From Escherichia coli (GTDB lineage Bacteria > Pseudomonadota > Gammaproteobacteria > Enterobacterales > Enterobacteriaceae), in the NCBI RefSeq assembly GCF_030013595.1, contig NZ_CP122770.1: a stretch of 64,000 bases of DNA, one strand, 5' to 3'. Position 1 is the stretch's first letter. Every line of letters starts with the position of its first letter. The notes under the pieces were generated by a model. That model searched no databases, was not told where the DNA came from, and saw nothing but the letters and a program-made list of their open reading frames with translations. Both the position numbers and the translations under genes were made by a program. Below are positions 60,799 to 64,000 of the stretch, piece by piece.

Positions 60799-61461
60799 AT
60801 GAAAGCTAAAAAAGAAACAACAGACAGATTTCCAACCTGGTGGCTATTTTATTATGTATTAAGAAAAGCTTATTTCTTTCTTGGAATACCTTTTTTTCTG
60901 TTCTGCGCATTAGGCTTTACCGAAATGCTATGTTCTGATCGTTATTTCGGAAATAAGGTCGAAGATTATGTTGTCACTTTCGGTAGTTGGTTCTTATTAC
61001 TTGCGCCAGGCATATGGATGTACTCACGTGCAAAAACAAGGAGAGAAAAAATAAGAAAAGTTGTACAAACAATAAAAGAGTCAGGCTTCTACTCTCCAGA
61101 GAAGGGGTATGAGGGATTATCTTTAACCCAGGGAGCTTATTTCGGCATTGACCTTAAAAATGGCACAATGTTGTATGTCCGTATCTATCCAGGCAACATT
61201 ATGGATGTTATCGGTTTTGACATTCATAATTTCACTCGTACTGTAACAGACGACAAAAAACTGGAAATTCATACGAAATACATCAATCTGCCAATGGTTC
61301 CTGTTCCATCATGGTGTGCTCATCCAGAAACAGCATCAAACACCATGCACGCAATGGCAAGTCGAGGATATGATTACCCAGTCGACTTTCCTCGCCTGAT
61401 TCAGGAAAAGCGTAAGGAGTGGGAGCAGATTGCAGGCATGCCTGTAGCCGAAGTATTTTAA
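60799..61461 (+). CDS. excA: ExcA entry-exclusion protein
   Basis: 220-aa protein with N-terminal TM helices, located directly after traY. Confidence 0.7.
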
Positions 61462-61532
61462 GATAAGCTCCCTCCATAACAGCCGGTTCAAATGAGCCGG
61501 CTTTTGTTCATTACAACAGATAACTTATGCCG

Positions 61533-61748: not shown

Positions 61749-61976
61749 TCCTCTTCATGAAATAAACAATGGCACTCACTTACAAACAGGAGTCCACTAT
61801 CGCAAGCGACTCAACTTAGCAATATCTCTCAATTTGAATGAAAAAACCAGATGGCATGTGACAGGGAACCGTCCGCATGATGTCCGTGACCATTTAACCC
61901 CATAAGCTAACCTTGTCACAAACGGGCGCAGAACAGCCTGCCAGACAGACAACAAAACAAAAGTCCAAGATAAAAC

Positions 61977-62105
61977 ATGAATACCGGTATCTCAATGCGA
62001 AGAAATAATCTCCGTAGAAACCCCCATGAGAAAAATATCATATGGGAGAAAATCGCAATTATCACAGCCAGCGCATTCATTATTTTCGCTGTGCTCTGGC
62101 ATTAA
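61977..62105 (+). CDS. Candidate small membrane peptide (42 aa from ATG 61977; 36 aa from ATG 61995)
   Basis: Charged N-terminus (RRNNLRRNPHEKN) followed by one hydrophobic helix (IAIITASAFIIFAVLW); below the ORF-track size cut-off; weak RBS. Confidence 0.25.
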   Translation: MNTGISMRRNNLRRNPHEKNIIWEKIAIITASAFIIFAVLWH

Positions 62106-62133
62106 TTATTTTCAACACAAAAAGGAAAAAACA

Positions 62134-62310
62134 ATGAATCTGGTAGACGCCTTTGTCAAAAAAGTAATATCCGGGCCATATGAAGAATATGGAAAATGGT
62201 GGATAGATGTTGAATACATTTCATGGGGTGTTCCCGGGAAAACAAGACTGATGTTTGAGTCAAAGGAGCAGGCACTGGAAGTTAAAGAAGGGTACAAATT
62301 TTTAACGTGA
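62134..62310 (+). CDS. Hypothetical 58-aa protein
   Basis: ATG 62134 preceded by AAAAGGAAAAAACA RBS; MNLVDAFVKKVISGPYEEYGKWWIDVEY... Confidence 0.4.
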   Translation: MNLVDAFVKKVISGPYEEYGKWWIDVEYISWGVPGKTRLMFESKEQALEVKEGYKFLT

Positions 62311-62371
62311 GATCTCTTTTTTGATTAGCAGGATTTTTGACATAGTGTGGGACAAAGCATAGAATTGATTA

Positions 62372-62459
62372 TGTTAGATACAGACTGTCTTTTCCCGCCC
62401 AGAGCAACCAACTCTGTAGCGGAACAGTAAAAAAGCCGACCTCACCAGTCGGTTTTTTT
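62372..62459 (+). ncRNA. Candidate small RNA unit 1 (promoter to intrinsic terminator, about 88 nt)
   Basis: Sigma70-like promoter TTGACA (62337-62342), 17-nt spacer, TAGAAT (62360-62365); hairpin CAGAG-caaccaa-CTCTG; terminator GCCGAC-ctcacca-GTCGG plus T7 (62435-62459). Confidence 0.35.
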
Positions 62460-62618
62460 ACATCTGTTGTTTCTGCAAATCCGCCCCACCATGCCTGTTA
62501 TACCGGGAAGACTCATGTTCTGGTTACCGTCATCACGACAGAAGTGTCGCCAGACAGTGCTAACCTGCGGATTACAAGGGTGGTTGTTATCAAATGAACA
62601 GAACACTATTATAAGAAC

Positions 62619-62705
62619 GTTAGCTGAAAAGAGATTTCCTCCAGTCAGGGCCACCAACTCTGTAACGGAACAGTAAGAAAACCGACCTCATCAGTCGGTT
62701 TTTTT
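62619..62705 (+). ncRNA. Candidate small RNA unit 2 (paralogue of unit 1)
   Basis: Promoter TTGTTA (62584-62589), 17-nt spacer, TATTAT (62607-62612); conserved 3' block CCACCAACTCTGTAACGGAACAGTAA and terminator (62681-62705). Confidence 0.3.
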
Positions 62706-62771
62706 ACATTTATTACTTCTGAGTAACGACAAGCTGTACGTAGCAAGCTCCCTCTGGCGTGGAGGACGTCA

Positions 62772-62915
62772 GCGGGCTACTATAATGTTGTCTAGGCATT
62801 ACAGTAGAGCCCTTGGTTGATTGATAGAACAATCTCCCGGGGCTTTCACAAACGCTTTCAGCTTACAGCCTCAAGCTCCCCACCGCGATTTTGACGACTT
62901 TCGTATTTTGCAACA
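62772..62915 (+). ncRNA. Toxin-less duplicate of the pnd antisense/leader region (putative orphan Sok/PndB-like antisense RNA)
   Basis: About 85 percent identical over roughly 150 bp to 63735-63900, including the promoter-in-hairpin GGGCTACTATAATG...CATTACAGTAGAGCCC; the minus strand has only a truncated 28-codon mok-like ORF and no hok-like ORF. Confidence 0.4.
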
Positions 62916-62990: not shown

Positions 62991-63078
62991 CGTCAGTTAT
63001 AGACAGCTCTTTTCTGGTCAGAGTCATCAACTTTGTAGCGTAACAGTAAAAAAGCCGGCCTCACCAGTCGGTTTTTTT
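62991..63078 (+). ncRNA. Candidate small RNA unit 3 (paralogue of units 1 and 2)
   Basis: Promoter TTGCAT (62955-62960), 18-nt spacer, TATCAT (62979-62984); hairpin CAGAG-tcatcaa-CTTTG; terminator GCCGGCctcaccaGTCGG plus T7 (63053-63078). Confidence 0.35.
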
Positions 63079-63233
63079 ACGTCTTTTGTATCTGCAAAAT
63101 CCGCCCCGCCATGCCCGTCACACCGGGGAAACTCATGCTCTGAACCTGAACCAGCCATCTCAACTTTGCCGTCTTCTGAAAAAACTGGCACATTCAGTTC
63201 GATAACTACCCATAAATACAGAGAGAAAATCCG

Positions 63234-63485
63234 ATGTCAGAAAAGTGGAGTAAAGAATTCGACTCTTGCTTTCAGGTGGGGAGCATAGAAGAAATTGCCG
63301 ATGCTCTCGAGAAACGCAGCGGAAGCGAGGAAAACGCGTTAGCCATGCTGGCAATGACAGCCTTCACACTCATGACCCGACGTGGTATCTGCGAAATGCA
63401 GAACGTGGCCCCCGATGGCAAAGGCATTCGGCTGGAGCTAATCGGCTTCAGGGGAAATGAAACAATACCGGATACGCTTCATTGA
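63234..63485 (+). CDS. Hypothetical 83-aa protein
   Basis: ORF followed by hairpin GCGGCGGCAG-aaaacc-CTGCCGCCG (63523-63548) that could also terminate the convergent pnd transcript; RBS weak. Confidence 0.3.
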   Translation: MSEKWSKEFDSCFQVGSIEEIADALEKRSGSEENALAMLAMTAFTLMTRRGICEMQNVAPDGKGIRLELIGFRGNETIPDTLH

Positions 63486-63556: not shown

Positions 63557-63709
63557 TTAACGTTTAACTTCGTAGGCTAACGTTGCCACAAGCACTGTGT
63601 TTCCCTGCTGGAGCCGGAGTACGCAAAGCGAATCCCTCACCATCCAGACAAAACACAGAATCGTCACACAGATGACGATTAACATCATTAAAAACGTTCG
63701 CTGTGGCAT
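63557..63709 (-). CDS. pndA: PndA, Hok/Gef-family type I toxin (50 aa)
   Basis: MPQRTFLMMLIVICVTILCFVWMVRDSLCVLRLQQGNTVLVATLAYEVKR, matching the Hok family TM helix, SLC motif and LAYE C-terminus; found by manual translation (below the ORF-track cut-off). Confidence 0.9.
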   Translation of the reverse strand: MPQRTFLMMLIVICVTILCFVWMVRDSLCVLRLQQGNTVLVATLAYEVKR

Positions 63710-63767
63710 CATAGCCCCTCCATTGCCTTACGGCGGTTATCGGGCTACTATAATGTTGTCGAAGCAT
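63564..63767 (-). CDS. pndC: PndC, Mok-like overlapping reading frame needed for pndA translation
   Basis: ORF in another frame overlapping nearly all of pndA and ending 7 nt before its stop; start taken at the internal ATG (63767) within the antisense target region; start uncertain (ORF-track ATG at 63848). Confidence 0.45.
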   Translation of the reverse strand: MLRQHYSSPITAVRQWRGYDATANVFNDVNRHLCDDSVFCLDGEGFALRTPAPAGKHSACGNVSLRS

Positions 63768-63815
63768 TACAGTAGAGCCCTTGGTTGATTGATAAAAAAA
63801 TCTCCAGGGGCTTTC
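63748..63815 (+). ncRNA. pndB: PndB/Sok-like antisense RNA with promoter embedded in a hairpin
   Basis: TATAAT at 63748-63753 on the strand opposite pndCA; predicted transcript overlaps the pndC start region and ends at stem CCCTTGG...CCAGGGG followed by CTTTCT. Confidence 0.45.
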
Positions 63816-64000
63816 TGCTGTATACCGTCCACAAAACGCTTTCGGCATACAGCCTCAAGCGCCCGCAGCTATTCTAACGACTTTCGTATCTGCAACAATC
63901 CTTTTATCACACGGCTAATTCCTCTGGTTAGCTCTTATCGCCTGCAAATAAATTTTTAACCTTTCCGTTTGATTTAAATTCCAGAAATGGAGACTTTGTC

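Follow-up and report, generated by a model that had tools for sequence, protein, structure and literature searches.

Two small open reading frames (ORFs) located downstream of excA in a 64,000-nucleotide (nt) stretch of Escherichia coli DNA (contig NZ_CP122770.1; the whole stretch is called the window below) are, on balance, best read as a promoter-less two-gene accessory cassette, which would encode two separate small proteins, a membrane peptide and a 58-amino-acid (aa) protein, and would not be a toxin–antitoxin pair. The window is part of an IncI1-type plasmid, as judged by traY and excA, and its end corresponds to the traY–excA end of the IncI1-type transfer region. Plasmids of the IncI1, IncK and IncB/O types play a major part in carrying extended-spectrum β-lactamase and other resistance genes. 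An earlier note on the window had placed both ORFs directly after excA, and this observation was confirmed: both were found on the plus strand, and the RefSeq annotation of identical plasmids identifies ExcA as the upstream neighbor. The segment 61462-62480 is nearly identical in more than 1,000 sequenced plasmids, while the two-gene cassette itself is carried by about 1,800.

The limits of the cassette were defined by comparing plasmids with different flanking sequences. The left breakpoint lies at query position 94 (window position 61993) in plasmids in which excA is followed by hha, and the right breakpoint at query position 422 (window position 62321) in the comparison with R64. The cassette is common to the I-complex plasmids, which include IncI1, I-gamma, K, B/O and Z, and it was found in three upstream contexts. 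In the window, R64 and p130SW, excA is followed by an opposite-strand HEAT-repeat gene, in pk88 and pE-T654-NDM-5 it is followed by a forward hha gene, and in the IncK/Z/B/O plasmids the cassette is preceded by a forward thermonuclease gene, nuc. In a promoter scan of the plus strand, no sigma-70-like site was seen in the sequence preceding the pair. Because the homology starts at the peptide ATG behind three unrelated upstream contexts of the same orientation, region 61995-62310 is likely a compact accessory cassette of two genes without a promoter of its own. The cassette would be transcribed rightward by read-through from the upstream gene, that is, from the tra/excA operon in the window, and from hha or the thermonuclease gene in other plasmids. 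The two genes would then be linked by position and not by mutual dependence.

The 58-aa protein and its phage relatives

The 58-aa ORF is a real gene, which RefSeq annotates as a hypothetical protein. The earlier note had called this ORF well initiated, and the data agree, as its Shine-Dalgarno sequence AGGA is located 7 nt before the ATG and is unpaired in the minimum-free-energy fold. The counterpart of this sequence in IncK/Z plasmids is AAGGTG. The placement of the ORF required a one-nucleotide correction, because its start is at 62134 instead of 62135, and the gap after the peptide stop codon is 28 nt instead of 29. The copy of the gene in IncK/Z/B/O plasmids has about 78% nucleotide and 84% amino acid identity to that in the window. 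The comparison with IncK/Z revealed 38 nucleotide differences, which were distributed 5/6/27 among the three codon positions (p = 2e-6), and which corresponded to 20 synonymous and 9 conservative replacement codons, with a nonsynonymous divergence (dN) of 0.089 and a synonymous divergence (dS) of 2.58. By this codon comparison the 58-aa gene is shown to be under strong purifying selection. The gene is also intact in 67 of 69 metagenome loci, a sample that is biased because the search pattern falls inside the 58-aa ORF.

Translation of the 58-aa protein has been shown in a closely related IncI1 plasmid, pTF2 (NC_032100.1). There the same frame is annotated as a 94-aa protein (HTE32_RS00140, WP_001707309.1), and this protein 140 has been quantified by tandem mass tag (TMT) proteomics (PMC12211044). 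Hence, the outcome that the earlier note had named as contrary to its proposal, a lack of translation of both ORFs, does not hold for the 58-aa ORF. The C-terminal 58 aa of protein 140 differ from the window sequence at one residue (G14E), and its gene is similarly located, with the HEAT-repeat gene on one side and the dqlB/pnd region on the other. On the other hand, dqlB is present downstream in pTF2 while it is missing from the window, and protein 140 is annotated with a 36-codon extension. The 94-aa frame, which is also used in some RefSeq records, starts at 62026 in the window (62026-62310, plus strand; locus L018 25829-26113, minus strand). The extension was rejected as a coding sequence, as it contains a stop codon in IncK/Z plasmids and has 2 synonymous versus 15 replacement changes. 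From these codon data, the true product of HTE32_RS00140 is most likely 58 aa long, so that the published knockout and proteomics study, which relied on the 94-aa RefSeq model, worked with a different start.

The same study allows the expression of the gene to be compared with that of the transfer genes. The level of protein 140 was increased about twofold in a constitutive-SOS lexA mutant and in the presence of cefotaxime, while it was unchanged with ciprofloxacin, and the gene has no SOS box (PMC12211044). The expression of tra genes was likewise increased under the first two conditions and unaffected by ciprofloxacin (PMC12211044). Because both rise under the same two conditions and neither rises with ciprofloxacin, the level of protein 140 follows tra expression, which fits a promoter-less cassette that is read from upstream. 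The deletion of gene 140 changed neither SOS levels nor conjugation frequency (PMC12211044), the conjugation phenotype covering the frequency obtained with the deletion mutant as donor. The deletion also took most of the peptide gene, because the 94-aa extension overlaps it in another frame. These results suggest that conjugation in the laboratory would require neither gene.

The 58-aa protein belongs to an uncharacterized family, PHROG 8110, which includes Vibrio phage ICP1 ORF214, Pseudomonas phage AH02 gp18 and Aeromonas phage 4L372XY gp175. Its residues 1-57 matched positions 1-58 of the 59-position phrog_8110 profile with an E value of 1.9e-19. The members share a full-length match of about 58 aa, an MNL start, and the pattern MNLxDAxVTEVLxxPYxxYGKWWVxVxYxSxG...LMFxTxEEAxxVxxGYxFL. 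A search of 1.8 billion representative proteins returned 194 clusters of the family, almost all of about 58 aa with an MNL start, and tblastn identified homologues in phages of the Aeromonas, Pseudomonas, crAss-like and Bacteroides groups. In phage or prophage-like settings the homologues were located in early, replication or recombination modules, for example in an Erf-SSB...integrase or an AAA_24-DUF669-helicase array, beside a Gam-like gene, or before a gene for a primase-like zinc-finger protein. The window differs from these settings in that the gene is located in a conjugative plasmid behind a plasmid-specific membrane peptide, while the phage genes are in early regions. Domain fusions were considered as a clue to function and rejected, because each of the apparent homologues of 91-300 aa contains an internal MNL start and owes its extra length to a start called too far upstream or to a read-through call. 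No model for the 58-aa protein was present in Pfam, NCBIfam or PADLOC, and a Pfam scan of 83 family members gave scattered chance matches only. Neither its RefSeq accessions nor its PHROG number is mentioned in any paper found in the literature search, and the supplements of the Salmonella small-protein census contain neither the peptide nor the 58-aa sequence.

Structure modeling predicted with high confidence that the 58-aa protein folds as a small OB-like β-barrel. This predicted fold is shared within the family, with a TM-score of about 0.9 to BFVD models, and Foldseek matched it among viral models to proteins of Vibrio phage ICP1, Klebsiella phages and Bacillus phages, all of them uncharacterized, while a search against the PDB gave nothing significant. 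The modeled barrel is shorter than the canonical five-stranded OB barrel, and the sequence identity of the protein to OB-fold domains (eS28, IF1/eIF1A, SSB, PriB, RPA) was 6-17%. The 58-aa product may be a soluble protein that binds single-stranded nucleic acid or a protein of DNA metabolism, and it could serve as an accessory factor modulating the host or the plasmid. The family is widespread in phage early regions, and the plasmid copy in the tractable E. coli would be a convenient system for its study.

The membrane peptide

The product of the first ORF had been described in the earlier note as a peptide of about 40 aa with a charged N-terminus and one transmembrane helix. This description agrees with the 42-aa ORF, the N-terminal half of which is strongly basic, while a hydrophobic stretch occupies residues 21-42 (Kyte-Doolittle 15-residue mean up to 2.79), but the length has to be revised, because the conserved start is likely Met7, which gives a product of 36 aa. 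In sequence comparisons the ATG at 61995 is most likely the start, since the IncK/Z homologue, MKQKNISKQINGKNTVWEKIAIFTAALFLIFAVCWS, is exactly 36 aa long with its Met1 aligned to Met7, and since the homology with the excA-hha plasmid type begins at this ATG. The preceding codons, MNTGIS, are missing in the IncK/Z type, which has a stop codon 5 codons upstream, and the excA-hha type has a different N-terminal extension, MNKHIQYIP.

The peptide ORF is probably a gene, with a coding signal that is weaker than that of the 58-aa ORF. The IncK/Z homologue could be aligned with the peptide from Met7 without gaps, and the position of the stop codon is shared. In the helix region, which comprises 21 codons, the IncI1 and IncK/Z sequences have 65% nucleotide identity, and their differences are distributed 6/4/12 by codon position (p = 0.03), with 8 synonymous changes and 6 replacements of one hydrophobic residue by another. 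When the helix was read in the other two forward frames, 0-2 changes were synonymous and 15 were replacements; in the best reverse frame these numbers were 6 and 9, and the frame contained a stop codon. The N-terminal 16 codons have diverged (48% nucleotide identity), while their length and basic character were kept. Several variants were also in agreement with maintenance of the frame. In one of them (L017, also protein P0226) two mutually compensating frameshifts retain a 36-aa ORF. Another variant, common in IncK/Z, has lost 1 nt, which puts the N-terminus out of frame and at the same time generates an ATG precisely where the helix begins, so that MEKIAIFTAALFLIFAVCWS would be encoded. Among 71 metagenome loci, nearly all keep the helix frame free of stop codons up to the shared one. 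In pk88-type plasmids a 26-nt segment flanked by the 15-nt direct repeats GCATTCATTATTTTC (62073-62087) and GCATTAATTATTTTC (62099-62113) is deleted (locus L005 2570-2600), which replaces the end of the helix by ...IIFNTKRKKQ and makes the peptide stop codon overlap the 58-aa start (ATGA).

The peptide had no match in Pfam, NCBIfam, PHROG or PADLOC at E<=1, and in a profile search its family was seen only in I-complex plasmids. The RefSeq annotation pipeline (Prokaryotic Genome Annotation Pipeline, PGAP) leaves it unannotated in most records, and its recognition adds a gene that is absent from most annotations. Together, these comparisons suggest that the peptide is most likely a small membrane protein that is confined to I-complex plasmids and has mostly escaped annotation.

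From its sequence, the peptide would be expected to insert into the inner membrane by its single C-terminal helix, with the basic N-terminus in the cytoplasm. The E. coli proteins MgtS, AcrZ and MgrB are small inner-membrane regulators, which act by binding larger membrane proteins. The peptide is similar to them in having about 30-50 aa, a single helix and no enzymatic potential, while it differs in being plasmid-borne and in having no sequence similarity to them, so that the comparison is an analogy and not a family assignment. By this analogy, the peptide probably binds a larger membrane protein, as other small membrane proteins do, and would not be a killer toxin.

Alternative explanations for the gene pair

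Several observations weigh against the reading of the pair as a promoter-less cassette for two separate proteins. An intrinsic terminator is located after excA (61481-61502), and the opposite-strand HEAT-repeat gene lies between excA and the cassette in the window. No recognizable Shine-Dalgarno sequence precedes the peptide in any plasmid type, the p value of 0.03 for its coding signal was obtained with the 21 helix codons, and there is essentially no sequence conservation in its N-terminal half. As both genes were removed by the pTF2 deletion, that mutant is uninformative on either gene alone. Finally, Pseudomonas phage AH02 encodes a membrane peptide of 43 aa, MNIEKNLERLVYCLILGMICIFFAGLCVGLLGLIISSMWGAIR, whose stop codon overlaps the start of the 58-aa homologue downstream (locus L010 2373-2504), which leaves some probability for a functional pairing.

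One alternative explanation starts from the wealth of toxin genes in this segment, which includes pndA and, in other plasmids, dqlB: the peptide would be a third membrane toxin of the type I-like kind, repressed by a further RNA, and the 58-aa gene would be a mere neighbor. The peptide has the general properties of the small hydrophobic proteins of type I toxin–antitoxin systems, with 36-42 aa, a basic N-terminus and a single helix of about 20 hydrophobic C-terminal residues, and like Hok/PndA and DinQ/DqlB it is of the small single-helix inner-membrane type and encoded in the same plasmid segment. The missing Shine-Dalgarno sequence is a feature of many tightly repressed toxins, the dqlB/agrB and pnd loci are nearby, and repeated frameshifts in the N-terminal half would be expected for a costly gene. 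However, the peptide matched no Hok/Gef (PndA) model in Pfam or NCBIfam, no DinQ or DqlB model (NF041472, NF041473) and no other toxin model at E<=1, while a DqlB control from locus L005 was recovered with an E value of 5.3e-19. It also differs from these toxins in that its charge is N-terminal with nothing after the helix, and in that no cognate antisense RNA was found for it. The earlier note's statement that the peptide is not a Hok protein was therefore correct, and the real Hok/PndA gene is located 1.5 kb downstream.

Sequence-based searches for an RNA that could control such a toxin gave no candidate, and an RNA of an undescribed type may be present. Sequence scans over the pair found no Rfam family, and no conserved opposite-strand promoter or terminator; neither a sok-type antisense RNA nor a mok-like leader lies over 61977-62310, the Rfam sok matches being located further downstream. 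Two weak minus-strand matches to the promoter consensus (9/12) were rejected, as they are not conserved in IncK/Z plasmids. A control by the three AgrB-like RNAs encoded downstream of the cassette was rejected as well, because their pairing with 61900-62320 calculated by RNAduplex (-22 to -29 kcal/mol) was within the range of shuffled controls (mean -24 to -25, best -33 to -45 kcal/mol), as compared with -51 to -62 kcal/mol for cognate dqlB leaders. An RNA switch before the 58-aa start was rejected because the folds of 62040-62160 and of its IncK/Z counterpart were no better than those of shuffled sequences (z -0.09 and +0.77). The helix frame that is open in nearly all metagenome loci resembles maintenance more than decay. 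Overall, these data make a type I toxin unlikely.

A second, similarly unlikely explanation is that the two products cooperate, with the peptide as a membrane anchor or toxin and the 58-aa protein as its soluble partner or antidote, in exclusion or another envelope function near excA. The genes are always adjacent, 26-28 nt apart, in one mobile cassette in all I-complex plasmids, the IncI1 cassette is located just after traY–excA, and the arrangement in phage AH02 resembles such a pair. On the other hand, a membrane peptide upstream of the 58-aa homologue was present in only one of nine non-plasmid loci, that of AH02, and the IncK/Z cassette is not adjacent to excA but follows the nuclease gene. 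Each gene was also found disrupted beside an intact copy of the other. In plasmid L014 the peptide is intact while the 58-aa gene contains a W22stop mutation, which is not the co-retention expected of a toxin and its antidote. Conversely, the peptide is altered beside an intact 58-aa gene in L004 and L015 (N-terminus frameshifted), in L005 (end of the helix lost by the 26-nt deletion) and in 11 metagenome loci. The deletion of both genes in pTF2 left conjugation frequency unchanged, a result that refers to conjugation and not to the exclusion index. Hence, the earlier proposal of a small toxin or exclusion determinant with its partner stands as far as the small membrane peptide and the well-initiated 58-aa gene are concerned, while the evidence is against the relation between them: the 58-aa family is free-standing in phages, each gene can be disrupted alone, no antisense signal was found, and the pTF2 deletion did not affect conjugation.

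It is somewhat less likely that the peptide ORF is a translated leader, which feeds or tunes the translation of the 58-aa gene, while the peptide itself is functionless. This explanation would account for the short 28-nt spacing, the lack of a Shine-Dalgarno sequence before the peptide, its freely varying N-terminal sequence, and the 26-nt deletion variant, which runs on to stop in the ATGA overlap. It does not account for the helix, in which synonymous divergence is saturated and yet the amino acids are conserved, all replacements being conservative. Moreover, the 58-aa gene has a good, unpaired Shine-Dalgarno sequence of its own with no structure that would need opening, and expression of the phage homologues does without a leader of this kind.

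About as doubtful is a more far-reaching proposal, that the 36-aa peptide is a new membrane effector specific to the I-complex plasmids, which could represent a new class of toxins or act as a small modulator of the machinery for type IV secretion or exclusion. With the phage-derived mini-OB protein as its co-worker or buffer, the pair would be a new two-protein addiction, exclusion or anti-defense module. The least likely explanation is that only the 58-aa gene is real, the peptide ORF being unexpressed and open by chance or by DNA or RNA constraint, which would agree with its omission by PGAP, its missing Shine-Dalgarno sequence, the thin statistics of the 21 codons and the out-of-frame N-terminus of the common IncK/Z lineage, but not with the equal length and stop position in IncI1 and IncK/Z plasmids despite about 65% nucleotide identity, the wobble bias confined to the peptide frame, the two compensating frameshifts that restore the 36-aa ORF, or the new in-frame ATG exactly at the helix start. 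Under the favored reading as a promoter-less accessory cassette, both products would most likely be minor accessory proteins, which, if true, makes the finding an ordinary one.

Antitoxin RNA genes and other neighbors

The features of the cassette and of the surrounding region are listed in Table 1.

Table 1. Positions of the cassette genes and of neighboring features in the window
Feature	Position	Strand	Remarks
DotA/TraY ORF, 745 aa	58491-60728		
ExcA	60799-61461		RefSeq annotation of identical plasmids
HEAT-repeat ORF, 71 aa	61533-61748	-	PF13646, E 2.3e-07; between excA and cassette
Peptide ORF, 42 aa, MNTGISMRRNNLRRNPHEKNIIWEKIAIITASAFIIFAVLWH	61977-62105	+	ATG 61977 to TAA 62105
Optional 6-codon N-terminal extension MNTGIS	61977..61994	+	Not conserved; completes the 42-aa ORF
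Putative two-gene cassette	61993..62320	+	330-bp unit; homology among plasmids with different flanks, from peptide ATG to ~10 nt past the 58-aa stop
Conserved peptide core, 36 aa from Met7, MRRNNLRRNPHEKNIIWEKIAIITASAFIIFAVLWH	61995..62105	+	Basic N-terminus, one C-terminal transmembrane helix
Shine-Dalgarno AGGA of 58-aa gene	62123..62126	+	7 nt before ATG; read from sequence
58-aa gene, cytoplasmic protein MNLVDAFVKKVISGPYEEYGKWWIDVEYISWGVPGKTRLMFESKEQALEVKEGYKFLT	62134-62310	+	PHROG 8110; predicted small OB-like β-barrel
AgrB-like small RNA gene 1	62374-62461	+	Rfam RF02891, 59 bits, threshold 40
AgrB-like small RNA gene 2	62620-62707	+	Rfam RF02891, 51 bits, threshold 40
Degenerate second Sok/PndB-like RNA region	62739-62880	-	67.5 bits, threshold 59
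AgrB-like small RNA gene 3	62993-63080	+	Rfam RF02891, 38 bits, threshold 40
83-aa ORF	63234-63485	+	Conserved between AgrB-like genes and pnd; RefSeq WP_001291964-type hypothetical protein
Intact pnd locus, PndA/Hok ORF	63557-63712	-	"Hok/Gef family protein" at matching position in related plasmids
sok match of intact pnd locus	63707-63864	-	Rfam; 1 kb beyond the degenerate copy

In R64, pk88 and IncK/Z plasmids the toxin gene dqlB is located directly after the 58-aa gene and convergent to it, while a tblastn search found no dqlB/dinQ ORF anywhere in the window. The three AgrB-like genes of the window each have a different 5′ recognition region, and each RNA was calculated to pair with a different dqlB leader class of other I-complex plasmids, with energies of -51 to -62 kcal/mol as compared with -26 to -40 kcal/mol for non-cognate leaders. 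A search for a trans target of these RNAs within the window returned only each gene's own complement. Hence, the three orphan AgrB-like antitoxins may be an "anti-addiction" set, and these antitoxin RNA genes next door to the cassette may be a more interesting lead than the cassette itself.

Remnants of toxin loci were also observed in this region. The minus-strand segment 62532-62619 is what is left of a dqlB gene: its promoter and the initial ~88 nt of the transcript remain, in a block with about 91% identity to R64, while the AgrB-pairing site and the toxin ORF are gone. Among the metagenome loci, dqlB is missing beside the 58-aa gene in 11 of 62. The degenerate Sok-like region is about 91% identical over 80 nt to the copy at 63736-63815, and no hok/pndA ORF is located behind it. 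The 83-aa ORF between the AgrB-like genes and pnd had no match in Pfam or NCBIfam. On the other side of the cassette, the position of the 71-aa HEAT-repeat ORF is occupied by a forward hha gene in other IncI1 plasmids. Some IncK/Z/B/O plasmids carry a tandem second copy of dqlB (locus L004 3270-3535; L015), and because a degraded copy of the 3′ half of the 58-aa gene with its terminator lies in front of it, the duplicated unit spanned the region from the middle of the 58-aa gene through dqlB.

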